Assembly (NCBI GenBank): GCA_050246315.1 | Contig: JBFWWG010000013.1 | Span: forward strand, 32,001 to 96,000 | Length of the DNA stretch: 64,000 nt | Origin: Nitrospiraceae bacterium | Lineage (GTDB): Bacteria > Nitrospirota > Nitrospiria > Nitrospirales > Nitrospiraceae | Direction of reading: 5' to 3' | In this document: piece after piece, positions 51,446 through 63,924 of the stretch | Layout of the letters: each line of letters starts with the position of its first letter | Numbering within the stretch: the first letter of the stretch is position 1 | Made by a program: the position numbers and the translations under genes | The notes under the pieces: generated by a model | Database searches by the model: none | What the model was told of the DNA's origin: nothing | What the model saw: the letters and a program-made list of their open reading frames with translations, nothing else

Positions 51446-52933
51446 ATGGAGATGGCTCCGCGAATGAGACAACGATCCGGGTCCCCCTTCACACGAGAGT
51501 TTGTGTCGCCACTTCCGTTTCCTACGCAGGTCATCTCCAACGAGGAATTTCTCCCGTCTCCCCAAACCCCCCGCCAGGCCATGGTTGAAACCCTGGCCCT
51601 TCGTCTGGCTGAGTCGGCTGCCGCGCGATTGAATGTGACGCGCCGGAATTTTCTGCGTCGATCGGGTGGAATGGCTGCGGTTTTTCTTGCCATGAACTCC
51701 GTGTTCGGGAAAATCTTCGACGTACTGGATGCAGAATTGTTCGATGTGGCCGCGGCCACTGAGCGCCGCGGCGATCCCTTTTTTATATTCGATGTGCAAA
51801 CCCACTATGTCAGCACCCACTATGATCCAACCAATGCCGAGTCCAAACGAGAAGGGGCCGTGGCAAAGGATCGGCTGTTGGCGCTGCGCCGGCGCATCCG
51901 TGAAGCGGGATGGAACCCGGCGCTGTTAGCGGACACGGGGACCATGAAGGATCTGTCCTGGGAGACGTTCATCAAGGAAGTGTTCCTGGACAGTGACACA
52001 ACGATCGGACTCATCAGCACTCCGCCTGGTCCCTATCCTCAGGAAGCTGTCGTCCCGCCCAAGGAGATGGCCCATATCCGAGACGAAGTCAATCGTGTGG
52101 CCGGCTCGCAACGGATGCTGGCTCATGGCTTGGCGACGCCTCAGTTGGGCGCCCCCGACCTGGAGTTCATGGAATTGCAGGTCGCGTCGCTCAAGATCGA
52201 CGCATGGAAGTGCTATACGGGTTCTTGCCCGAAGGGATTCGACCGCGGATGGTGGATGAGCGACGAGCGCATCGCATACCCCATGCTCGAAAAGGCCCGC
52301 GCTCTCAAGGTCCCTCGCGTGTGCGTCCACAAGGGGCTTCCGTTGGGACCGGTGCCGAACTACAACCATCCTAAAGATCTCATCCAGGCCGCGAAGGATT
52401 TCCCAGACCTGGATTTCTTGGTCTATCATTCCGGCCTGCTCACTTCCTTGGGAATCGATGAGACCTTCGCCAAGACCGGGGCCATTCCTTGGACCACGGA
52501 ATTTTGCCGCATGAAACAGGCCGAGCCGGAGCTTGGAAACATCTACATGGAACTGGGCTCGACCTTCGCCCAACTGGTCGTCACGCACCCAGCGATCTGT
52601 GCGCACCTCCTGGGCCAACTCATTCAAGCATTCGGTGTGGACCATGTGCTCTGGGGGACCGACTCCATCTGGTATGGCACACCGCAATGGCAGATCGAGG
52701 CCTTTAGACGATTTGAGATTCCGGAGCCGCTCGTGGAAGCATACGGCTACCAGCCGTTGACGCGATCGGCCAAGGAACGGATTTTCGGTCTCAACGCGGC
52801 TAAGCTCTTCGGAATTGACGTCGCGGCCACGCACAATCGGGTGCCCGCGGACTATCTGGGCAGGATTCGCATGGCCTATCACGAGGAAGGTCCGCTGCCG
52901 AGTCATCGATGGTATGGATGGGTGGCAGGGTGA
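51446..52933 (+). CDS. Amidohydrolase-family (amidohydrolase_2) metalloprotein
   Basis: DVQTH, WKCY, VHKG, YHSG, LWGTDS, KERIFGLNAAKLF; internal TRRNFLR. Confidence 0.85.
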   Translation: MEMAPRMRQRSGSPFTREFVSPLPFPTQVISNEEFLPSPQTPRQAMVETLALRLAESAAARLNVTRRNFLRRSGGMAAVFLAMNSVFGKIFDVLDAELFDVAAATERRGDPFFIFDVQTHYVSTHYDPTNAESKREGAVAKDRLLALRRRIREAGWNPALLADTGTMKDLSWETFIKEVFLDSDTTIGLISTPPGPYPQEAVVPPKEMAHIRDEVNRVAGSQRMLAHGLATPQLGAPDLEFMELQVASLKIDAWKCYTGSCPKGFDRGWWMSDERIAYPMLEKARALKVPRVCVHKGLPLGPVPNYNHPKDLIQAAKDFPDLDFLVYHSGLLTSLGIDETFAKTGAIPWTTEFCRMKQAEPELGNIYMELGSTFAQLVVTHPAICAHLLGQLIQAFGVDHVLWGTDSIWYGTPQWQIEAFRRFEIPEPLVEAYGYQPLTRSAKERIFGLNAAKLFGIDVAATHNRVPADYLGRIRMAYHEEGPLPSHRWYGWVAG

Positions 52934-53078
52934 GAGGTAGTAGGCCGCCTGTTTTCTGCTCGCGCGCCTCGCACTCCAGATCATCAAACGAACAAAGCTA
53001 AGGCCGGTGCTCGGCGGATGCGCACAAGTCAGACGTCCGGTCCGGTACATATAACGAGATGAAGGGGAAAGGACGAAG

Positions 53079-53762
53079 ATGAAGAGTGAGATCTTGTATC
53101 CGGGGGCGTTTCCGATGGTGCGGGTCTTCCTGGATGTCGGCGAAAGCATCAAGGCCGAGTCGGGCGCGATGGTAGGCGCTTCCCCGACGATCGACGTCGA
53201 GAGCAAGCTGGAAGGTGGATTGCTGGGTGCGCTGTCCCGCAAGTTGCTCACCGGTGAAAAATTCTTCTTCCAAACATTGCGCGCCGCGCGGGGGGCGGGC
53301 GAAGTGCTGTTGGCCCCCACGGTTCCCGGAGAAATCGTGGTGGTTGATCTCGACGGCGTCAACGAATACTTGGTTCAGAAGGACGGATTTTTGGCGGGAG
53401 CCGAGAGCATCAAGATCGAAAGCAAAGTGCAGAGTTTGAGTCGAGGGCTGCTGGGCGGCGAAGGGTTCTTCATTTTGCGCATCAGCGGGCAGGGGCAGCT
53501 CATCCTGAACAGTTTCGGCGCCATCCACAAAATTGAGCTCAAGCCCGAGGAAGAATATATCGTGGACAACGCGCATCTCGTCGCCTGGTCGGCGACGACC
53601 TCCTATGGCATCGAGCGCGCCTCAACCGGATGGGTGTCAAGCTTTACGTCCGGGGAGGGATTCGTTTGCCGCTTTCGCGGTCCCGGCGTGGTGTTGATCC
53701 AAAGCCGCAATCCCGGCGGATTCGGCAATTGGATCAGGCAATTCATTCCGGTCTCAGAATAG
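53079..53762 (+). CDS. TIGR00266 / AIM24 family protein
   Basis: AESGAM, GEKFF, GGEGFF, SFGAI, VDNAHLVAW, SGEGFVCRFRGPG..IQSRN. Confidence 0.92.
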   Translation: MKSEILYPGAFPMVRVFLDVGESIKAESGAMVGASPTIDVESKLEGGLLGALSRKLLTGEKFFFQTLRAARGAGEVLLAPTVPGEIVVVDLDGVNEYLVQKDGFLAGAESIKIESKVQSLSRGLLGGEGFFILRISGQGQLILNSFGAIHKIELKPEEEYIVDNAHLVAWSATTSYGIERASTGWVSSFTSGEGFVCRFRGPGVVLIQSRNPGGFGNWIRQFIPVSE

Positions 53763-53765
53763 GGT

Positions 53766-53830
53766 GGTCACTGGTCACTGGTCATCAGTCACTGGTTTTT
53801 CCACTGACCAATGACTGGTGACCGATGACA
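53766..53830. repeat. Inverted heptamer array (hairpin-forming)
   Basis: ggtcact ggtcact ggtcatc agtcact gg-ttttt-cc actgacc aatgact ggtgacc gatgaca. Confidence 0.85.
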
Positions 53831-53838
53831 GGCTCTCA

Positions 53839-54954
53839 ATGACCATCTCCCCCAACGCCCTTTGTTTCGGATCTGAGTTGCCGGCTTCAGGCGCCGCCTG
53901 TTTCGCCAGCCTTTCCCCGAACGGCTTGACTCTCACTTTTCTCCCGGACCGTGGCGGGGGAGCGCACAACGTTCCTTTCTCGGCGCTGACCGTGGGAGCG
54001 GGGGGCTTCGATCATGACCAGCTCGTGTTGAAGTGGGTTGATCGGGGTCGCGCCTTCGCGCTTCACAGCCGAGACCCTGAACTCATCCGGGGGCTTCGAA
54101 CGACGGCTCCAACGACGTTGGCCACGGCCCTTGCGCAGACCACCGACCAGGTTCGCAGGCGTCGCACGATCCGCCGACTTGCCTGGGTGGCGTCGATCGC
54201 GATGCTCGCCGGCGTATTGACCTGGCTCTGGTATGGCTCAGACATGTTGGGCGACCTGGTTGTATCGCGGATTCCATCATCATGGGAGGAGTCGCTTGGG
54301 GAATCGGCGTATCGTCAATTCCTGTCGGGCCAGACGGTTGTGAAGGAGGGGCCGGCGCTGCAAGCCGTGCAAGCGGTCACCGATCGGTTGACGGCCCATC
54401 TTGTTGCCAGTCCGTACCGTTTCCAAGTAACGGTAGTGGAGAATCACGCCGTCAACGCCTTCGCACTTCCCGGTGGATACATCGTAGTGTTCAGCGGGCT
54501 GCTCAAGAAGGCGAATGGTCCGGAGGAAGTGGCGGGCGTGTTGGGCCACGAGTTGAACCATGTCCTTCTCCGACATGCCATGGAACGAATCGTTAAGAAT
54601 ATGGGACTGATCGCGGTCGTGACCGTACTGACCGGTAATCAGCAGGGCATGGCCGGCGTGATGAAAGAACTTGGTATCGAACTGGCCACGCTCAAGTTTG
54701 GGCGAGCGCAGGAGCTGGAGGCCGATCTCGAAGGCCTTCGACTCCTGCATCGGGCGAGGGTGTCTCCCGAGGGGATGATCGGGTTTTTTCAGCGCCTGGC
54801 CGACTTGGAGGGGCGGCAGGTGGAGCTGCTCTCGACCCATCCGATGAGTGAGGCTCGCGCGCAGCGGCTGAAGTCGGAAGCGGCGACGCTGCCTCCCATG
54901 ACTCCCGAGCCGTTCGCCATCGATTGGCACGCGGTGCAGATTGCGGTGAAGTAG
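53839..54954 (+). CDS. M48 family metallopeptidase
   Basis: VNAFALPGG, AGVLGHELNH, RAQELEAD, LSTHP; one TM segment. Confidence 0.92.
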   Translation: MTISPNALCFGSELPASGAACFASLSPNGLTLTFLPDRGGGAHNVPFSALTVGAGGFDHDQLVLKWVDRGRAFALHSRDPELIRGLRTTAPTTLATALAQTTDQVRRRRTIRRLAWVASIAMLAGVLTWLWYGSDMLGDLVVSRIPSSWEESLGESAYRQFLSGQTVVKEGPALQAVQAVTDRLTAHLVASPYRFQVTVVENHAVNAFALPGGYIVVFSGLLKKANGPEEVAGVLGHELNHVLLRHAMERIVKNMGLIAVVTVLTGNQQGMAGVMKELGIELATLKFGRAQELEADLEGLRLLHRARVSPEGMIGFFQRLADLEGRQVELLSTHPMSEARAQRLKSEAATLPPMTPEPFAIDWHAVQIAVK

Positions 54955-55485
54955 ATGATGAGTAGGACGGCGAAAATCCCAAATGCGACCATGCGGCGAG
55001 AAAAACGATCGTTCCGACTGGGCGTGATCGCCGATACGCATGGGCTATTCGATGCGTCGTTGGAAGTGCACTTTGGCGGGATCGACCATATCGTGCATGC
55101 CGGTGATATCGGCGACCGGTCTGTGATGGACCGGCTGGCGAAGATCGCGCCGGTGACGGCGGTGTCCGGCAATGTGGACGGGTATGGTCTCAGCGGGTTT
55201 CCCGTGGACCGTCTGCTGGAACTTGCAGGCTGTCGCATTGCGCTTCGGCATATCGTGTACGAGGGCGGACGCTTGCATCCAGACGCACGGGCCTTGCTCG
55301 ACCGCGAGCATCCGGACATTTGTATTTTCGGGCATACGCATCGTCCGCTTATCGAATGGCTCGGTCCGATGCTCCTATTCAATCCCGGCTCAGCCGGGCC
55401 CAAACGTCTCCACCTTCCCAGGGCCATCGGACTCCTCACGATCGACCCCGACCGCGTGACGCCGATACACGTGCTCCTGAAGTAA
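54955..55485 (+). CDS. YfcE/MJ0936-like metallophosphoesterase
   Basis: ADTHG, HAGDIG, GNVD, FGHTH, NPGS. Confidence 0.9.
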   Translation: MMSRTAKIPNATMRREKRSFRLGVIADTHGLFDASLEVHFGGIDHIVHAGDIGDRSVMDRLAKIAPVTAVSGNVDGYGLSGFPVDRLLELAGCRIALRHIVYEGGRLHPDARALLDREHPDICIFGHTHRPLIEWLGPMLLFNPGSAGPKRLHLPRAIGLLTIDPDRVTPIHVLLK

Positions 55486-55601: not shown

Positions 55602-55630
55602 TTGACAATCTAATTCAACGTCCATATAGT
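55602..55630 (+). promoter_or_regulatory. Near-consensus sigma70 promoter for the TRL-like genes
   Basis: TTGACA-N17-TATAGT. Confidence 0.75.
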
Positions 55631-55728
55631 GACGCCGTCTTGAGCAGTCCGGTCTAAGGGGAAGCCTACAACCCTGACGACATGTTCGCTACCTTCTCAA
55701 TCCATTCCACATTTAACAGGGAGGGAGT

Positions 55729-56046
55729 ATGAAACGGAACCTAATCCTTGCCGCGGTTGCTGCAAGTATGTTGACGCTCTACGGTTGTCAACCGGTTCAC
55801 TCGCCGCTGACCGGTGTCATCTTCAACGAGACTAAGTTTGGCTATGTGGCGACCACCAATGCGGCGACGACCAAGGAAGGCAAGGCCTGCGGCACCACGA
55901 TCCTGGGGTGGGTGGCGACCGGGGATATGAGCCTCACCGCGGCCAAAGCGGCCGGTGGGATCACCAACGTGTCCCATGTGGACCATTCCGCTCATAACAT
56001 CCTGGGGATCTTCGCGGAATTCTGCACGATCGTGAAGGGCAACTAA
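55729..56046 (+). CDS. TRL-like family lipoprotein, copy 1
   Basis: Lipobox LYGC; KEGKACGTTILGWVATGD.S..AAK.AGGIT...VD...NILGIF..FCT.V.G. Confidence 0.88.
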   Translation: MKRNLILAAVAASMLTLYGCQPVHSPLTGVIFNETKFGYVATTNAATTKEGKACGTTILGWVATGDMSLTAAKAAGGITNVSHVDHSAHNILGIFAEFCTIVKGN

Positions 56047-56079
56047 GCCGCCACTCTCTCGACGATTGAAGGAGGAGCT

Positions 56080-56397
56080 ATGAAGAAGCATCTCGTGCTT
56101 GCAGCATTGACGGTGTCGTTGTTGAGCCTCTACGGGTGCCAGCCGGTGGCGTCGCCCTTGGTGGGTATTATTTTCAACGAAACCAAGTTTGGGAATCTGG
56201 CCACGACCAACGCGGCGGCGACCAAGGAAGGGAAGGCCTGCGGCACCACCATCCTGGGCTGGGTGGCCACCGGGGACATGAGCATCAGCGCGGCCAAGGC
56301 GGCGGGCGGCATCACCAATGTGGCCCATATCGACTATACCGCCAAGAACATCCTCGGGATCTTTGCAGAGTTCTGCACGATCGTGAAGGGCAACTGA
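56080..56397 (+). CDS. TRL-like family lipoprotein, copy 2
   Basis: Tandem paralog of the same length (105 aa); SD AAGGAGGAG. Confidence 0.88.
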   Translation: MKKHLVLAALTVSLLSLYGCQPVASPLVGIIFNETKFGNLATTNAAATKEGKACGTTILGWVATGDMSISAAKAAGGITNVAHIDYTAKNILGIFAEFCTIVKGN

Positions 56398-56421
56398 CCT
56401 CCATTCGGATAGGGTTCGACG

Positions 56422-56453
56422 AAAGGGCCTGGGTAACCAGGCCCTTTTTGTTT
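56422..56453 (+). terminator. Intrinsic terminator after the TRL pair
   Basis: AAAGGGCCTGG-GTAA-CCAGGCCCTTTTTGTTT. Confidence 0.88.
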
Positions 56454-56464
56454 GTGGAGACCTG

Positions 56465-57181
56465 ATGCACAATCGGGTATGCCATGGTTCCAAGGACGAT
56501 CGGGTGCGGCGTCTCCGTAGATTCCGTGAACGGCGAGGTGCTCGCAACTGGGGAGTCGCGCTCAGCATAGGCTTTCTTGTAGTACTGACGCTTGCTCCCG
56601 ACAGTACTTCTGCGCAAACGAAAGATTTTGTATACATCGCGGCAGCGTTGGTCGGAAGCTTTCCCGAAGATAAGGACGCCGTGTTCCAGGGGCTGTCGCG
56701 GGGCGGCACTCAGCTCCGACCGGGCGTCGGATTGGGCATCAAAACCGCAGTCTTCCCGGCTTTTGTGAAGCGCATGGTCGGGCTGGAACTCGAATACGTC
56801 GGGCATTCGGGACGGATCCAATTCCCGCTCTCGGGAGCTAATACGGGACGGTCCGGCAGTTCGGCGCTCACGGTACTCACGTCTATGGCGAATCTCATGG
56901 TGCAATATCCCGACGCGGTCGTACAGCCTTATGCCGGAGTTGGAATGGGATGGGCAACGGGAATCTTGACCGATACGGACATTCCCGACAGGCCGGATCG
57001 CGGCTTCGAGGGAGCGTGGGCATTCAGTTATCAATTCATTACGGGTGCGCGAACGCGACTTTCCCCACGGACATTCCTCTTTGCCGAGTACAAATATCTT
57101 GCGGCCAATTTTCATTGGACTCAATTGGCCGTGGATTTTCGCTCACACTACGTGCTGTTCGGCGTGGGGCTGAGTTTTTGA
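56465..57181 (+). CDS. Outer-membrane beta-barrel protein (OmpA/OmpW-like 8-stranded type)
   Basis: Signal peptide, GLELEY, QPYAGVGMG, FAEYKY, C-terminal GVGLSF. Confidence 0.8.
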   Translation: MHNRVCHGSKDDRVRRLRRFRERRGARNWGVALSIGFLVVLTLAPDSTSAQTKDFVYIAAALVGSFPEDKDAVFQGLSRGGTQLRPGVGLGIKTAVFPAFVKRMVGLELEYVGHSGRIQFPLSGANTGRSGSSALTVLTSMANLMVQYPDAVVQPYAGVGMGWATGILTDTDIPDRPDRGFEGAWAFSYQFITGARTRLSPRTFLFAEYKYLAANFHWTQLAVDFRSHYVLFGVGLSF

Positions 57182-57311
57182 CTGGCCGCATCCGCGCGCA
57201 ATTAAGGTGGATGGCCTCTGTCTTGCTTCTCGCATTCTGTTATACTTCGCCCCGACCCGTAATCCATGCGCTCCGCGTTCATTACAACCCTTTTGCCGGG
57301 AGAAGGACAGG

Positions 57312-57821
57312 ATGAGGCACGCCGTCGAGTTCCAACTGGTTGCGATGCTTTTGGCCATACAGGTTGGGACGGCCTATGCGACCAACCCAGACACAGGCCC
57401 AGGGTGCGGGTTAGGTAAAATGCTGTGGGCCGATCATAAGAACCAAAAGAACATCGCCCCTCAGGTATTGATGGTGACGACCAATGGCACGGGGATGAAC
57501 ACGTTCGCGATCAGTTCCGGAACCTCCGGATGCACGAATGACGGGCAGGTGTGGGCTGAGCAGAAGGTCACGACCTTTGCGAGCCTCAATTTCGACAATC
57601 TGGCCCAAGAGATGGCTCAAGGAGAAGGCGAGCATCTGTCCTCCCTGGCCACGCTCATGGGTGTGCCCGCCGAGCATCAAGCCGAGTTTTTTGCGATGAC
57701 ACAGGAGAAATACACGAGCCTGATGCAGGGAGGAGCGTCTTCCCCCATGGCCTTAATTAAAGACTTGAATGACGCGATCGACGGCCATCCGATCCTCGCG
57801 AAGGCCACCGCGCCCCACTGA
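57312..57821 (+). CDS. DUF3015 family exported protein
   Basis: Signal peptide; GPGCGLG, TTNGT, FAISSGTSGC, NLAQEMAQGEGEHLSSLATLMG. Confidence 0.85.
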   Translation: MRHAVEFQLVAMLLAIQVGTAYATNPDTGPGCGLGKMLWADHKNQKNIAPQVLMVTTNGTGMNTFAISSGTSGCTNDGQVWAEQKVTTFASLNFDNLAQEMAQGEGEHLSSLATLMGVPAEHQAEFFAMTQEKYTSLMQGGASSPMALIKDLNDAIDGHPILAKATAPH

Positions 57822-57864
57822 AGGCCTTGCGGTTCCCGATTGTTCAAGATTTGGGGAAGCTCGG

Positions 57865-59793
57865 GTGTTCCGCTACCACCTCCGTTTGGCCGTCCGGTGT
57901 TTCTTCTGCTGCCTACTCATCCTCCTATCCCGCATCGCCGCCGCCACTGTACATGATCCATCCGGTTACCTCAGCGAATTGATTCAAACCGCCGACAGAG
58001 AGGCGCTGGCCGATCGTCGAGAATGGCGACAGCTCCTTCACTACTACCCAAGGCTCTTTGGTGGCATGAAGAGTCAACAGGACGACGAGGGATTCTTTCT
58101 TTCGCGGAAAGGAAAGACCAGTCCTCGGATCGAACTGGAAGCCACCCTGGCCGCCTTTTTCAGAGACGATCTCGTCGGGCGTTCCAGACAACCGGCCCAA
58201 TGCGCGTTCATGGCCCGGTACACATGGTTGAAGCAACAGTTGGCGTTCGATGAGCGGCGCCTGCCTCCGCAACGTTGCGAGCGGTTTGAAAATTGGTTCA
58301 AGGAATTGAATGCCGAGGGCATCAGCCTGATTTTTCCCGCCGGGTTCATGAACAACCCGGCTTCCATGTTCGGACATACTTTTTTACGCATCGATCAGCG
58401 GGGTCAGACCGAGCAGACGCGGATTCTCGCCTACACGATCAATTTCGCGGCGGAAATTCCTCCTGATGCCGGACCGGAATATGCCTACAAGGGAATCTTC
58501 GGAGGCTATCCGGGGCGATATTCGACCATTCCCTACTACTTGAAGGTGCAAGAATACCGCGATATTGAGAACCGCGATATCTGGGAATATCGGCTGAATC
58601 TGTCTGAGGAGCAGATCCGGCGGCTGCTCATGCACGCCTGGGAAATGGGCAATGCCACGTTTGACTATTATTTTTTTGATGAAAACTGCGCCTACCACAT
58701 TCTCTCGCTGCTCGATGCAGCCGACCCGTCATTCCATCTCACCGACGGGTTCCCGTTCTATACCCTGCCGAGCGACACGGTTCGCCGGGTCATCTCGCAC
58801 CCGGGACTGGTCAAGGACGTCGTGTATCGGCCATCGAGACGCACGCTGGTCGGTCAGAAGCAGCGAGCCATGTCGCCAGATGAGAGGGTGCTGCTTGGGA
58901 ACCTGGTTGAGGATCCGCAGGTGTTGCAGACCGACGCGTTTGCCGCGCGCACGCCCGAGCGGCAAGCGTTCCTCATGGATACAGCCTCCGATTACCTCCT
59001 CATGCGAGGGGGGGGAGATCCTCAACGTTCCTCCGTGTTCAAGGATCGTAATCGGGCGATTCTTCTGGCCCGGAGCAGGCTCAAGGTCCTGCCGGAGGAG
59101 CCGCCTATCGTACCATTCACCGACCGGCCCGACCGCGGACACGGTACGGCTCGCGTCGGGGTGGGTGCGGGATGGCGTAACAACGACGCATACACGGAAC
59201 TGGCTTTCCGCGGGGTGTATCATGATCTCCTGGACCCGGAACCGGGCTATACGCCGGATGCGCAGATCGAGTTGGTTTCCGTGGGGCTCAGGTACTACCA
59301 CAATCAAGATCAGACCAGACTGGAACGATTCGGGGTCATGAATGTGGTTTCGTTGTCTCCGATGGATAACCTGTTCAAGGCGCCGTCCTGGAAGATGAAT
59401 CTGGGGATGAACACCATCAAGTACAATACCTGCGATCTGTGCAGCAACGGGGTCGCCGGCGGAGGCATCGGCGCGGCCTTCGAGACCAGGTGGTTCAAAC
59501 GGGAAGTCTACTTTGGGTTTGCTGAGGTCGAGGCGAACTACAGCCGGGCCTATGATGACCGGTATCGGATCGGAGGAGGCGGTACCCTCGGTGTGTTGGC
59601 GGATCTCACCGAACGGTGGAAGCTGCTGGTCTCGTCCACCTATCTCACCTTTCCGCTGGGGGATCGGTCGGACGATTGGCGATGGTCAGTCGGACAACGA
59701 TATACGATCAGCCAGAATCTCGCCCTCCGGCTCGAGTATCATCACCGCGATCACGACAACGATGTTGAGTTCCTGTTGCACGCCTATTTCTGA
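57865..59793 (+). CDS. DUF4105 / Lnb N-terminal-domain protein with a probable C-terminal beta-barrel
   Basis: W..LLHY, NPASMFGHTFLRID, Y..IENRDIWEY.LNL, YYFFDENCAY, YRPS, YHDLLD; ends HAYF. Confidence 0.85.
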   Translation: MFRYHLRLAVRCFFCCLLILLSRIAAATVHDPSGYLSELIQTADREALADRREWRQLLHYYPRLFGGMKSQQDDEGFFLSRKGKTSPRIELEATLAAFFRDDLVGRSRQPAQCAFMARYTWLKQQLAFDERRLPPQRCERFENWFKELNAEGISLIFPAGFMNNPASMFGHTFLRIDQRGQTEQTRILAYTINFAAEIPPDAGPEYAYKGIFGGYPGRYSTIPYYLKVQEYRDIENRDIWEYRLNLSEEQIRRLLMHAWEMGNATFDYYFFDENCAYHILSLLDAADPSFHLTDGFPFYTLPSDTVRRVISHPGLVKDVVYRPSRRTLVGQKQRAMSPDERVLLGNLVEDPQVLQTDAFAARTPERQAFLMDTASDYLLMRGGGDPQRSSVFKDRNRAILLARSRLKVLPEEPPIVPFTDRPDRGHGTARVGVGAGWRNNDAYTELAFRGVYHDLLDPEPGYTPDAQIELVSVGLRYYHNQDQTRLERFGVMNVVSLSPMDNLFKAPSWKMNLGMNTIKYNTCDLCSNGVAGGGIGAAFETRWFKREVYFGFAEVEANYSRAYDDRYRIGGGGTLGVLADLTERWKLLVSSTYLTFPLGDRSDDWRWSVGQRYTISQNLALRLEYHHRDHDNDVEFLLHAYF

Positions 59794-59815
59794 GCTGTGA
59801 GAGACCGAAGGGACT

Positions 59816-60571
59816 ATGCTCGACCGGCTGTTCCTCTATCATCCGGCGCCCTGGGAGGAGCGTGACTGGGCAAGGTTGAGCGGTCTTCCGCTTGAGGAAG
59901 TGCGGTTCCGGGCGAAGGATGGTCCGGAACTGTTCGGTTGGTATCTCAGGGCTTCCCGGTCGTCGGCCGTGTTGTTATGGTGTCACGGCAATGCAGGTAA
60001 CGTGACGCACCGGCTGGAAAATCTTCGCGCCCTCTACCAAACCGGCCTTTCGGTGCTGCTCTTTGATTATCGTGGCTATGGCCGCAGCGAAGGTCGACCG
60101 TCCGAGCAGGGGCTGTATCGAGACGCCCTAGCCGCCTACGACCACTTGGTCACCCATCAGCACATCGACTCGGAACGACTGGTGTTGTTTGGACGGTCGC
60201 TCGGGGGAGCCGTGGCCGGCGAACTGGCAGTGCGACGTCGGGCAGCGGGTCTGATTCTGGAATCGACGTTTCCGTCCGTCGAGGCCGTTGCCAGATTCCA
60301 CTACTGGGGGTTGCCCGCTCATTGGCTGATTGGCGCCGAATTCCGTTTGGTCGACCGGTTGCCGCACCTCATGCTTCCATCCCTTGTGATCCATGGAGAT
60401 CAAGACGATCTGATTCCCCCGGCCTTGGGGAAGGCCGTCTTCGATGCGCTCAAGGGACCCAAGACCTTTTACCTGGTGAAAGGAGCCGATCATAATAACT
60501 TGCCGTTTCAGGGAGGACTCGCCTATTTCACCCGCCTTCGTTCGTTCATCGAGTCCGTCGTTCGGGGATAG
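59816..60571 (+). CDS. Alpha/beta hydrolase (ABHD13/Bem46-like)
   Basis: CHGNAGN, DYRGYGRSEG.PSE.GLY.D, GRSLGG, HGDQD, GADHN. Confidence 0.92.
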   Translation: MLDRLFLYHPAPWEERDWARLSGLPLEEVRFRAKDGPELFGWYLRASRSSAVLLWCHGNAGNVTHRLENLRALYQTGLSVLLFDYRGYGRSEGRPSEQGLYRDALAAYDHLVTHQHIDSERLVLFGRSLGGAVAGELAVRRRAAGLILESTFPSVEAVARFHYWGLPAHWLIGAEFRLVDRLPHLMLPSLVIHGDQDDLIPPALGKAVFDALKGPKTFYLVKGADHNNLPFQGGLAYFTRLRSFIESVVRG

Positions 60572-60877: not shown

Positions 60878-61384
60878 ATGAGATTGCCGGTCAAAATGAG
60901 CGTGGGTTATGAAGGTGCCACGCTGGTCCTCGACAATACCCGAGAACTGCTGTCCGTGATCTCTCCGGCTGGAGAGGTCCTGGGGACGGTCAGTTGGGCC
61001 TCTGTGATCGAGTTGGTTCAAAGCCGGCAAGAAAGTGATGATCGGGAATCGGTCCAGGGGATGGTTCCCCTGGCGTTGAAGGTGCAGTACCATGCGGCAG
61101 GATCTGTATCCGGCGAGGGGCTCACGGCGGAATTCGGAGGAGGTGGGTTTTTCCTGGAGACCGGCACTCCGTTGCCTGTCGGGACCGAGCTCACCGTCGA
61201 GTTTTCCTTACCTGATCAGCCGCATCAACTGCATGCATCGAAAGCCAAAGTCGTGTGGGTTCGGCACAAACCGGAACGTCATCTCTTTCTTCCGGGGATG
61301 GAAGTGCAGTTTGTCGATCTCCCGGAGACTGTCCATCGGCAGGTCCGCGACCTTGTCGCAGCGCTCCAGCGGGCCAGGCGCTGA
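60878..61384 (+). CDS. PilZ-like domain protein
   Basis: GGGGFFLET..PLPVGTELTVEFSLP, AKVVW, GMEVQF. Confidence 0.75.
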   Translation: MRLPVKMSVGYEGATLVLDNTRELLSVISPAGEVLGTVSWASVIELVQSRQESDDRESVQGMVPLALKVQYHAAGSVSGEGLTAEFGGGGFFLETGTPLPVGTELTVEFSLPDQPHQLHASKAKVVWVRHKPERHLFLPGMEVQFVDLPETVHRQVRDLVAALQRARR

Positions 61385-61622
61385 TTTTCCGCCCCACCGT
61401 TAACAGACCGGCACCCATGGTCGTTTCCCTTTCCGATCCCCAATACCGACATTGTGAATCTGGTTTCGCACACGGGTAGGAAGCGGCCGGATCGATTTTA
61501 TCCGTCCACTCTCTGAGATACTTTGAGTTGTCGCTCTCTATTTGCTAAAGTTCAGCCTTCTACGCAGTTCATACAATCAGGATAAGTTGAATACAGTGGA
61601 ATGTCATTGCGAGGGTAGGACT

Positions 61623-62597
61623 GTGTCAGCAGTGGGATGTCGGAGGTGGCGAGAGGCCCTGCTGTGGCTTGTCCTCATCAGTCTGAGCGGATGCGCCGAT
61701 CACATCGAGTTGCTTCAGGCCAGCCACGCCTCGTCATTTCACCTGTCATCGGTCCTGCCGACAGCCGAACAGGAACGAATCCCCGTCTCGATGGCAGCGG
61801 CCGCCGAACCAGTCATGGCTGGCTCGCAAACGCCCCCCCCTTCGCCGCAGTCTGCCCAATCAGGCACAACCGATTTGCCCGACGACCTTGCCGGGGACGA
61901 GCCCTTCGATCCGTTTGCCAGTCCGCAAGATGTTGTCGAGGAATACGATCCCTGGGAGCCGTTGAACGTCTTTATGTTCGAGGTCAACCGCAAGATCGAC
62001 ACGTATGCCCTCAAGCCGATTGCCAGGGCCTATAACGCCGTGCTTCCCAATGATGTTCAGCGAGGGGTGCAGAATTTCTTTCATAACGCTCGTACAGGGC
62101 CTCGATTCTTCAACAATCTATTCCAAGGGAAGCTGAGAGGGGCGGGTATAGAACTCGGCCGCTTTGCGCTCAACACCACCTTTGGTCTCGGCGGCTTCTT
62201 TGACGTGGCCAAGCACATGCGAATCGAGACGCCCGATGAGGATTTTGGCCAGACGTTGGGCTATTACAACGTGCCGCAGGGACCCTATCTCGTCATCCCG
62301 CTGTTTCCGCCGTTCACGGTCCGCGATTTTACCGGTTACTTGATGGATCTGGCGCTTGATCCGATCAACTGGCTGGTGTTTCCGATCATTGAGATCAACA
62401 ACGTTCCCTCGTTGGTCGCCCACCAAAACCGCATGACCACCACAATTGTGCAACTGGGTTCCCGAGCCACCTTCATCGTCAATGAGCGGTCGCGTAATCT
62501 GGAGACGTTCGAAGGAGTTGAGGAGTCTACAATCGACCTGTACAGTGCCGTCCGCAACGCCTATCTGCAGAAACGCGTGAAGCTGGTTCGGGAGTAA
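61623..62597 (+). CDS. mlaA: VacJ/MlaA family lipoprotein
   Basis: Lipobox LSGC; DPWEPLN, LKPIA, RFALNTTFGLGG, EDFGQTLG, GPYLVIP, DLYSAVRNAYLQ. Confidence 0.92.
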   Translation: MSAVGCRRWREALLWLVLISLSGCADHIELLQASHASSFHLSSVLPTAEQERIPVSMAAAAEPVMAGSQTPPPSPQSAQSGTTDLPDDLAGDEPFDPFASPQDVVEEYDPWEPLNVFMFEVNRKIDTYALKPIARAYNAVLPNDVQRGVQNFFHNARTGPRFFNNLFQGKLRGAGIELGRFALNTTFGLGGFFDVAKHMRIETPDEDFGQTLGYYNVPQGPYLVIPLFPPFTVRDFTGYLMDLALDPINWLVFPIIEINNVPSLVAHQNRMTTTIVQLGSRATFIVNERSRNLETFEGVEESTIDLYSAVRNAYLQKRVKLVRE

Positions 62598-62605
62598 GAT
62601 GAAAT

Positions 62606-62713
62606 CGTCACTCGTCAAACGTCATTGGTCATTCGAGAGAGTTTCTCTCCAGGGGGGAGTCATCGGAGCGTGGGAGTTTGTAGCGGCCGACGAATGAGGC
62701 TTGACCCTTGACG
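62606..62713. repeat. Inverted heptamer array between convergent genes
   Basis: cgtcact cgtcaaa cgtcatt ggtcatt ... gccgacg aatgagg cttgacc cttgacg. Confidence 0.7.
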
Positions 62714-62721
62714 CGACCGCT

Positions 62722-63924
62722 TCAGGCGATCACGCCGAGTTCCCGTCCGACCTTGGCGAAGGCCTGCACCGCACGGTCCAGGTGCTCTCTGGTATGGGCG
62801 GCAGAGAGTTGCACGCGAATGCGGGCATGACCTTTCGGGACCACGGGGTAGCTGAACCCCACCACATAGATTCCTTCTTGGAGTAACCGGTCGGCCATTC
62901 TTGTCGCCAAGGTCGCATCGCCCAGCATGATCGGAACGATCGGGTGGGTGCCGGGCAGCAGTTGGAACCCCAAGCGACTCAGCTCCGTGCGGAAGAACTC
63001 GCTGTTCGCCTGGAGCGCGGCGCGAAGCCCATCCCCCTGGGCGACTAGCTTCACGGCCTGGAGCGCTGCCGCCGCAATCACGGGTGGAAGCGAATTCGAG
63101 AAGAGATAGGGACGGGATCGCTGGCGCAGCAGTTCGATGATCTCCGTACGTCCCGTCGTGAATCCGCCGGCTGCGCCGCCCAGAGCTTTTCCCAATGTGC
63201 TGGTGATCAGATCAATGCGGTTCGCGACCCCGAAGTGAGCGGGTGTGCCCCGCCCCCCAGGCCCCAACACCCCGGTCGCATGACTGTCGTCCACGACGAC
63301 GACGGCGTCGTACCGGTCGGCCAAGTCCGCGATCCGATCCAGCGGCGCCAGATCGCCGTCCATGGAGAAGACGCCGTCGGTGGCGATCAGACGGAGGCGG
63401 CAGGAAGCCGCCTCCGTCAAGGCCGCCTCCAATTCGCCCATGTCGGCGTGCGCATAGCGGAACCGTTTAGCTTTGCAGAGGCGAATGCCGTCGATCAGGC
63501 TGGCATGATTGAGCGCATCGCTGATGACTGCATCCTCTTCACCCAACAGCGTGTCGAACAGCCCGCCGTTCGCATCGAAACAGGAACTGTAGAGGATGGT
63601 ATCTCCGGTCCCGAGGAAGGTGCTGACGGCCCGCTCAAGACGCCGATGCAGGTCTTGTGTCCCGCAAATAAACCGCACGGAAGCCATTCCGTAACCATGT
63701 TGATCGAGTCCGTCCTTTGCGGATCTGCGGATCTCCGGATGGTTGGCGAGGCCGAGATAGTTATTGGCACAGAAGTTCAGTGCCTCGCGATGGCCGTGCC
63801 CGTGGGCCACCTGGATTTCAGCCCCTTGAGGGCCGAGCAGGTGCCGCTCGGTCTTGTAGAGGCCGGCACTCCGAATCTCGGACAGTTGGCGCTCGACGAT
63901 GCTCTTCAACGACCCGTAAGCCAT
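62722..63924 (-). CDS. kbl: Glycine C-acetyltransferase (2-amino-3-ketobutyrate CoA ligase)
   Basis: [68 protein letters not shown]. Confidence 0.96.

Follow-up and report, generated by a model that had tools for sequence, protein, structure and literature searches.

A conserved two-gene core, consisting of a DUF3015 gene and a gene for a DUF7843-Lnb_N-DUF7840 enzyme, was recognized in the window, a 64,000-nucleotide stretch of DNA from a Nitrospiraceae bacterium. As a tentative reading, given somewhat less than an even chance and built on structural models, the enzyme would be an Lnb-type acyltransferase carried by an outer-membrane barrel, which works on the periplasmic face and acylates docked DUF3015 proteins. 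In Gram-negative bacteria, the envelope protein acylation described so far takes place at the inner membrane, through Lgt, Lnt, and Lnb.

The core lies in a run of six co-directional open reading frames (Table 1), and the ORF list together with the sequence confirmed that all called genes and motifs are real, including the promoter, ribosome-binding sites, and terminator of the preliminary description. The Shine-Dalgarno sequences, the motifs GPGCGLG, TSGC, FGHT, DENCA, and GRSLG, and the C-terminal Phe were read directly. The proposed families (TRL, DUF3015, and DUF4105/Lnb_N) were each matched by a Pfam profile, and the six products were assigned to TRL (twice), OMP_b-brl, DUF3015, DUF7843 with Lnb_N and DUF7840, and Hydrolase_4.

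Table 1. Features of the locus, with positions counted from the first letter of the window
Position	Strand	Feature	Basis
55602..55630	+	sigma70-type promoter TTGACA-17-TATAGT of the TRL unit	11/12 consensus positions
55729..56046	+	TRL-family lipoprotein 1, lipobox LYGC; lineage-limited neighbour	Pfam TRL E 1.5e-25
56080..56397	+	TRL-family lipoprotein 2	Pfam TRL E 5.8e-26
56421..56448	+	intrinsic terminator behind the TRL pair	folding z -4.13
56465..57181	+	small OMP beta-barrel; partner in TRL-terminator-OMP cassette	Pfam OMP_b-brl 3.8e-8
57238..57246	+	candidate extended -10 TGTTATACT of the DUF3015-enzyme unit	motif match
57312..57821	+	DUF3015 protein with signal peptide; core gene	Pfam E 2.6e-44
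about 57612-57632	+	MAxGxGExL, predicted docking motif of DUF3015	complex model
57865..59793	+	DUF7843 - Lnb_N - helical domain - predicted 12-strand outer-membrane barrel; core gene	Pfam, AF2 model
58375-58377; 58441-58443; 58687-58689	+	putative catalytic residues H171; N193; C275	alignment
59152-59790	+	predicted barrel, residues 430-642	AF2 model
59816..60571	+	Ser alpha/beta hydrolase (GRSLG), no signal peptide; frequent neighbour, role uncertain	Pfam Hydrolase_4

Since the DUF3015 gene has its own candidate extended -10 element and the hydrolase is made without a signal peptide, the locus appears to comprise two or three transcription units rather than one operon. A promoter resembling that of the TRL unit was found in 15 of the 17 loci with enough sequence, compared with 0.9% of random genome windows, and in related loci a hairpin likewise stands 3' of the last TRL gene. 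No hairpin separates the DUF3015 gene from the enzyme gene in the window (folding z -0.04). The extended -10 motif recurs 60-74 nt upstream in 7/35 loci, over a background of 0.9%. RNA contigs from two studies (55650-56388 and 55684-56376) extend over the TRL pair, starting close to the promoter and stopping close to the terminator. Contigs are silent on the ranking of genes and on where transcripts end, and these give a weak hint only.

The enzyme harbors an Lnb_N domain (Pfam E 1.7e-59; 200.8 bits against a cut-off of 22.2), formerly termed DUF4105 and known from Lnb, the lipoprotein N-acyltransferase of Bacteroides (NCBIfam NF051878; bioRxiv 10.1101/2024.05.31.596883). The NCBIfam Lnb match pairs enzyme residues 167-277 with profile positions 44-149, a region that lines up with His49 and Cys148 of Lnb (bioRxiv 2024.05.31.596883). 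Conservation of the triad is complete for H171 and C275 (148/148 each, 100%) and reaches 122/148 (82%) for N193, and the AF2 model displays the permuted NlpC/P60 order, in which H171 precedes strand 173-178 and C275 opens helix 275-286. An exported Lnb_N domain with His-Asn-Cys in the same order and at similar spacing is common to both proteins, whereas Lnb continues C-terminally into five inner-membrane helices and the Nitrospira enzyme into 12 predicted beta-strands, with additional DUF7843 and helical domains; the whole enzyme scores 23.2 bits against the NF051878 equivalog, below the cut-off of 550. In contrast with Lnb, it has a strict DUF3015 partner and shares its genome with an Lnt, so that it is not needed as a general N-acyltransferase.

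The earlier proposal of a barrel-anchored, Lnb-like Cys/His enzyme was supported, at the level of prediction, by the 12-strand model, its barrel matches, and the conserved triad. Modelled alone, the enzyme gave a pLDDT of 95.9, with 12 C-terminal strands and Phe as the final residue, and among 12-strand outer-membrane barrels its best match reached Z 14.3 (rmsd 3.9, 189 aligned). This barrel fold is common to the EstA autotransporter, Tsx, NanC, and FapF (Z 12-14, rmsd about 4 Å). In the alignment, sequence conservation and constant length mark the loops that lie on the same side of the barrel as the C-terminus, whereas the opposite turns are variable; by strand parity and this loop conservation, the catalytic domain likely sits on the periplasmic side of the outer membrane rather than at the surface. 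The predicted model has the 12-strand C-terminal barrel of classical (type Va) autotransporters, but the enzyme gave no autotransporter Pfam match. Fold searches with the full model were filled by the barrel and returned barrel matches only, and the catalytic fold accordingly stands as a prediction. Sequence searches among solved structures retrieved no relatives of the enzyme, DUF3015, or TRL, and the ESM Atlas search returned only the families themselves.

Coupling of the enzyme with DUF3015 crosses phyla, and this part of the originally proposed six-gene system stood. The DUF3015 gene lies directly upstream of the enzyme in 71/72 loci; at locus L064 it was not found within 8 kb. Among 121 Nitrospirota genomes, the 47 with DUF3015 are also the 47 with the barrel enzyme (about 39%), and in Pseudomonadota DUF3015 was present in 20 of 201 genomes, all (20/20) among the 25 with the barrel enzyme (10-12%), although the five of these 25 without a DUF3015 match count against strict pairing. 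Beyond Nitrospirota, the module extends to Vibrionaceae, Pseudoalteromonas, and Bdellovibrionota, the enzyme being found in Acinetobacter as well; MlaA and a lipase-like hydrolase are often encoded beside the core. The DUF4105-DUF3015 adjacency is already listed in the supplement of PMC10318531, in which the epsilon-proteobacterial pair adjoins lnt and secDF, and the earlier description of the system as undescribed is qualified to that extent. Literature searches by the Pfam/InterPro identifiers of the module yielded only unrelated fungal work, and those by Acinetobacter locus tags only folE.

DUF3015 is constructed of a two-Cys, Ser/Thr/Gly-rich N-terminal segment followed by a C-terminal helical domain. 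Two classes were distinguished, which carry different N-terminal cargo on one docking domain and have a Ser/Thr motif in common; paralogues reach nine copies per genome and form tandem arrays, and all 20 orphan lipoprotein-class members examined keep the predicted docking domain and the motif ([ST]..T[ST]G). As previously suggested, a complex of DUF3015 with the enzyme was predicted, scoring 0.81 against 0.00 for the best control, above a pass mark that was reached by 116/157 solved pairs and 2/215 mismatched pairs; at least 53% of contacts agreed between runs, with a partner pLDDT of at least 64. The best predicted contacts join the conserved A80, G82, and G84 of mature DUF3015 to L400 (93%) and R403 (97%) of the enzyme. 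Conservation of the predicted enzyme interface as a whole was no higher than that of its domain (0.49 vs 0.52), with only the part in the helical domain being more conserved (0.46 vs 0.36). H171, N193, and C275 lie outside the confident interface residues, so the model does not place the client in the active site.

In the mechanism proposed, the predicted 12-strand barrel would hold the His-Asn-Cys enzyme at the periplasmic face, DUF3015 would dock through its C-terminal helical domain, and a fatty acyl chain would be transferred to the Ser/Thr-rich N-terminal segment of the docked protein. Candidate acceptors are a Ser/Thr hydroxyl within the [ST]..T[ST]G motif and, alternatively, the free N-terminus. 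Nothing in the analysis points to cross-linking of co-encoded proteins, which had also been considered. A broader form, possible but on the doubtful side, envisages an outer-membrane lipidation route independent of Lgt and Lol, in which DUF3015 serves as a portable C-terminal recognition domain that delivers diverse periplasmic proteins and lipoproteins to the barrel-anchored Cys acyltransferase, where, on the inner side of the outer membrane, their Ser/Thr-rich N-terminal cargo would be O- or N-acylated.

A rather unlikely alternative would make DUF3015 a subunit or regulator without catalytic function. The enzyme would then be a phospholipase A or transacylase whose substrates are outer-membrane phospholipids or other lipoproteins, resembling the two-part LnsAB or HRASLS/Tox-Act1 chemistry. 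The absence of the catalytic residues from the confident interface agrees with this alternative, as do the frequently adjoining MlaA and lipase-like hydrolase and the consideration that Lnt would already N-acylate lipoprotein-class DUF3015. The permuted NlpC/P60 effectors Tox-Act1 and TseH share with the enzyme, as predicted, His/Cys catalysis on acyl linkages (PMC12994826); Tox-Act1, the sister clade of DUF4105, is a phospholipase and not a protein acyltransferase, which counts against the acylation reading, and relatives cleave PG and PE (PMC12994826). Staphylococcal LnsAB includes an NlpC/P60 N-acylating enzyme that requires a second gene product (bioRxiv 10.1101/2024.05.31.596883), in which the likeness consists, although it resides in a Gram-positive cytoplasmic membrane, unlike the predicted outer-membrane enzyme. 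The two DUF3015 classes, their varied cargo, and the high copy numbers, however, are more suggestive of a set of clients than of a fixed subunit.

Less probable still is a peptidase or transpeptidase that would remove the C-terminal domain of DUF3015, whereupon the N-terminal cargo is released, anchored, or exported, perhaps through the enzyme's own barrel, by analogy with FapD/FapF or sortase-like processing. The precursor-like layout, with variable cargo, a conserved Ser/Thr-Gly junction, and a conserved C-terminal domain, is consistent with such cleavage, and FapF heads the Foldseek list for the enzyme model. The FapF match, however, is that of a generic 12-strand barrel, which several other barrels exceed by Z, and the permuted order of His before Cys has been linked in the literature to lipid substrates.

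That all six genes form one system, with the TRL lipoproteins as substrates and the hydrolase reversing the reaction, is improbable. TRL genes do stay close to the enzyme in Nitrospiraceae, no more than 3 kb from its Lnb_N region in 17 of 20 genomes and in four arrangements, and they adjoin it in the deeper Nitrospirales/Nitrospiria loci L041 and L045; a hydrolase follows the enzyme in 21/35 Nitrospirota loci and 14/26 others. TRL linkage was nevertheless found in 0/8 genomes of other Nitrospirota families and 0/35 non-Nitrospirota loci, 16 of 36 TRL-positive genomes are devoid of the barrel, and 27 of 47 Nitrospirota barrel genomes are devoid of TRL, so that TRL as a general substrate was not supported; the unrelated AIM24, M48, and metallophosphoesterase genes are as frequent beside the enzyme (25, 26, and 23 loci vs 19). 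The TRL-OMP cassette, in which a small OMP follows TRL in 16/18 loci, is a separate unit with its own promoter and terminator, retained near the core in Nitrospiraceae. The mature parts of the two TRL copies are 85% identical; Foldseek gave no structural match, and fold comparison only a weak RcsF/YbjQ/dodecin-like topology (Z 3.6-3.8, not significant; rmsd 3.4-3.7; 65-68 aligned), which FKBP matched equally well. They share the TRL domain with the lipoproteins of the Leptospira Lsa14/TRL family but score 60.1 and 66.8 bits against the NF047877 (Lsa14 adhesin) equivalog, below its cut-off of 120; the accessible portion of the Lsa14 literature (PMC7662565) draws no connection to Lnb-like enzymes, and a search for TRL-like lipoproteins met triglyceride work only.

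The hydrolase as reverser of a periplasmic reaction was likewise not supported, because the Nitrospira enzyme has no export signal as judged by eye, an in-frame stop lying just upstream, and appears to belong to a separate clade. In a rapidly built tree of 41 rows, for which 8 of the 26 Nitrospirota rows were retained, two clades at 100/100 set the Nitrospira enzymes apart from the module-adjacent lipoprotein hydrolases of other phyla, with one unlinked protein nearer the lipoprotein clade (support 86). This signal-less hydrolase is a separate unit kept nearby in Nitrospiraceae.

A lipase toxin with DUF3015 as inhibitor among periplasmic immunity proteins is very improbable: the sister clade Tox-Act1 is a T6SS toxin and the paralogues stand in tandem arrays, but Tox-Act1/TseH are secreted toxins of conflict loci, whereas the predicted barrel-anchored enzyme is single-copy, conserved, and syntenic in 19/19 Nitrospiraceae, and DUF3015 without the enzyme, as expected of orphan immunity genes in non-producers of toxin-immunity systems, occurs in 0/67 genomes.

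Should acylation of docked DUF3015 proteins by the barrel-borne enzyme prove true, acyl-transfer chemistry would shift to the outer membrane, at its periplasmic side, and in Nitrospiraceae a pathway independent of Lgt and Lol may serve the co-retained TRL-OMP surface cassette. It would also provide the first testable roles for DUF3015, DUF7840, and DUF7843.

The six co-directional genes claimed in the preliminary description were all recovered as ORFs, each assigned by Pfam, and the promoter and terminator of the TRL lipoprotein pair were likewise borne out (see the table). The source genome, whose homologues indicate the genus Nitrospira by their names, harbors one Lnb_N gene, two DUF3015 genes, three TRL matches and its own Lnt. 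A PilZ-domain gene, otherwise seen only in locus L008, lies 3' of the hydrolase (60878-61384), and a synteny block conserved in Nitrospira only flanks the module at 51446-55485 and 61542-63924, comprising amidohydrolase, AIM24, M48 peptidase, metallophosphoesterase, MlaA and PLP-dependent CoA-ligase-like genes.

Genes and signals of the six-gene stretch
Feature	Position	Orientation	Basis
Promoter of TRL unit	from 55602		11/12 consensus positions matched
TRL lipoprotein 1	55729-56046	co-directional with other five	ORF, Pfam
TRL lipoprotein 2	56080-56397	co-directional with other five	ORF, Pfam
Terminator	56421-56448		folding z -4.13
Small outer-membrane protein (OMP)	56465-57181	co-directional with other five	ORF, Pfam
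DUF3015	57312-57821	co-directional with other five	ORF, Pfam
Enzyme, 642 residues	57865-59793	co-directional with other five	ORF, Pfam
Hydrolase	59816-60571	co-directional with other five	ORF, Pfam

The pairing of DUF3015 with the enzyme was surveyed in 79 GTDB loci, which came from the best 80 of 590 matches and are hence biased to close relatives (44 from Nitrospirota and 35 from Pseudomonadota, Bdellovibrionota, Nitrospinota, Desulfobacterota and more). Upstream DNA was sufficient in 72 of these, and DUF3015 was found directly upstream of the enzyme in 71, counting L052 after correction of an over-long ORF call; only L064 truly lacks it there. When 121 evenly sampled Nitrospirota genomes were compared, the set with DUF7840 above its cut-off and the set with DUF3015 proved identical, at 47 genomes, while among 201 Pseudomonadota genomes DUF3015 occurred in 20, every one belonging to the 25 with DUF7840, and the other five barrel-bearing genomes gave no DUF3015 match; no P value is attached to these counts, since related genomes are not independent. 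The same pair is present in annotated Salinivibrio and Pseudoalteromonas records. On an Acinetobacter plasmid, the enzyme homologue (L147:4899-6791) and blaADC stand tail to tail between two ISAba1 copies, DUF3015 being absent from the stretch shown, and the homologue is apparently a passenger in this segment. The adjacency itself is already on record, as the PMC10318531 supplement lists DUF3015 at +1 of DUF4105 (the former name of Lnb_N) in epsilon- and gamma-proteobacteria, in the former beside lnt and secDF, and calls the function unknown.

The enzyme is constructed of DUF7843 (47-125), Lnb_N (141-311) and DUF7840 (420-632). H171 and C275 are present in every one of 148 diverse homologues, and N193 in 122 of them. 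The NCBIfam Lnb profile matches weakly (23 bits, cut-off 550; residues 167-277 on profile 44-149), which places the enzyme in register with His49 and Cys148, the residues named for Lnb in preprint 10.1101/2024.05.31.596883. The AlphaFold2 model (pLDDT 95.9) contains twelve C-terminal strands at 430-641, which resemble 12-strand outer-membrane barrels generically (EstA Z 14.3, Tsx 14.2, NanC 13.6, FapF 12.2; rmsd about 4 Å), and fold searches with it returned no match reaching the catalytic domain. A C-terminal Phe occurs in 107 of the 148 homologues. The C-terminus of outer-membrane barrels is periplasmic; on that footing the long loops 452-465 and 497-507 lie on the periplasmic side. Among the 148 homologues these loops are conserved and constant in length and most turns on the opposite side vary, a pattern suggesting that the catalytic domain is on the periplasmic face. 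In one locus (L024:10873-12910), the enzyme gene is duplicated in tandem, and a truncated DUF3015 separates the two copies.

Prediction of the complex between enzyme and DUF3015 gave a score of 0.81 against 0.00 for the best control, with at least 53% of contacts common between runs and a partner pLDDT of at least 64; the score mark admits 116 of 157 solved pairs and 2 of 215 mismatched ones, rates that are only rough for the alignments used here. A sequence search of solved structures revealed no comparable complex. The best predicted contacts join Q77-A80-Q81 of mature DUF3015, within the motif MAxGxGExL (G82 and G84 invariant), to the helical domain of the enzyme at L400, R403 and S404, and the Ser/Thr-rich segment 30-58 is also in contact. 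The most likely, though tentative, reading casts the enzyme as an acyltransferase: Cys275 would pick up an acyl chain from a phospholipid of the inner leaflet, and the chain would then be handed to the docked DUF3015 protein. It is opposed by two observations, namely that none of H171, N193 and C275 takes part in a confident contact, and that the interface on the enzyme side is no better conserved than its domain (0.49 versus 0.52), the helical part alone reaching 0.46 versus 0.36.

That DUF3015 is instead a subunit of a phospholipase or transacylase is less likely, though Tox-Act1, a sister clade of DUF4105, cleaves PG and PE according to PMC12994826 (a term search of nine of its supplements found no mention of DUF3015, DUF7840 or Nitrospira). 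Among 20 hand-picked orphan matches from 16 relatives plus the orphan of the source genome, one belongs to the secreted two-Cys class, and 20 are lipoproteins that share its helical domain and carry, besides, a short Thr-rich stretch and an [ST]T[ST][GP] motif; such lipoproteins also stand directly upstream of the enzyme in three loci (L050, L065 and L068). Judged from these sequences, a client family fits better than a fixed subunit, because variable N-terminal cargo rides on a fixed docking domain, and the orphans scattered in Nitrospiraceae genomes (L002:1465-1890, minus strand, contig C20 of the source genome; L127-L145) are candidate extra clients. Genome G144 (contigs C40, C411 and C31) carries seven DUF3015 matches, at least four in tandem. 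An enzyme acting as a processing peptidase is improbable. Literature searched on DUF4105, DUF3015, and Lnb with a beta-barrel, subscription journals lying outside its coverage, contained neither the barrel fusion nor the docking nor the client classes.

A strong TRL match is present in 20 of 61 genomes of the family. No more than 3 kb separates it from the Lnb_N region in 17 of them (downstream on the same strand in 10, upstream on the same strand in 5, divergent in 1 and convergent in 1), the two being on different contigs in the remaining three. In 16 of 18 loci the same OMP comes next after TRL, which keeps its own promoter (15/17 loci) and terminator wherever it moves; L041 and L045, two deeper loci, also have TRL adjoining the enzyme. 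In other Nitrospirota families with both genes, none of eight genomes has them together (seven on other contigs, one at 93 kb); in the phylum-wide sample, the barrel is absent in 16 of 36 TRL genomes and TRL in 27 of 47 barrel genomes. TRL was near the enzyme in none of the 35 non-Nitrospirota loci, and five such genomes carry it elsewhere, among unrelated genes. Since AIM24, M48 and metallophosphoesterase genes neighbor the core in 25, 26 and 23 loci versus 19 for TRL, lineage synteny can explain much of the linkage; a Nitrospiraceae-specific link, retained through four rearrangements, is possible. For TRL the predicted structure is of mediocre quality (pLDDT 73.5) and resembles RcsF/YbjQ-like folds only weakly. 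L011, L012, L017, L019 and L037 carry a second paralogue of the small OMP, inserted immediately after the enzyme gene, at times without TRL; in two Alphaproteobacteria (L089:663-1397, L091:687-1403), TRL sits between RND-like transporter and endonuclease I-like genes, labelled by eye; and a third, divergent TRL-like lipoprotein of the source genome (L006:1501-1824, minus strand, contig C6) adjoins a further small lipoprotein and has a formyltransferase-like gene downstream.

The hydrolase is downstream in 21 of 35 Nitrospirota loci and 14 of 26 others. By eye, 26 Nitrospirota hydrolases begin at the mature domain without a signal peptide, while 20 outside the phylum are lipoproteins, and the two form separate clades in the tree; in the window, an in-frame stop codon precedes the start. 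The hydrolase is thus likely cytoplasmic in the source organism, judging by its N-terminus, and therefore could not directly reverse a periplasmic reaction, a role earlier proposed for it. A single system of all six genes is still less probable than a peptidase, and a toxin-immunity pair is very unlikely. What stands of the six-gene module is its two-gene core of DUF3015 and enzyme, which is real, widespread and unstudied, while the TRL-terminator-OMP cassette and the hydrolase are lineage-level companions of this pair.
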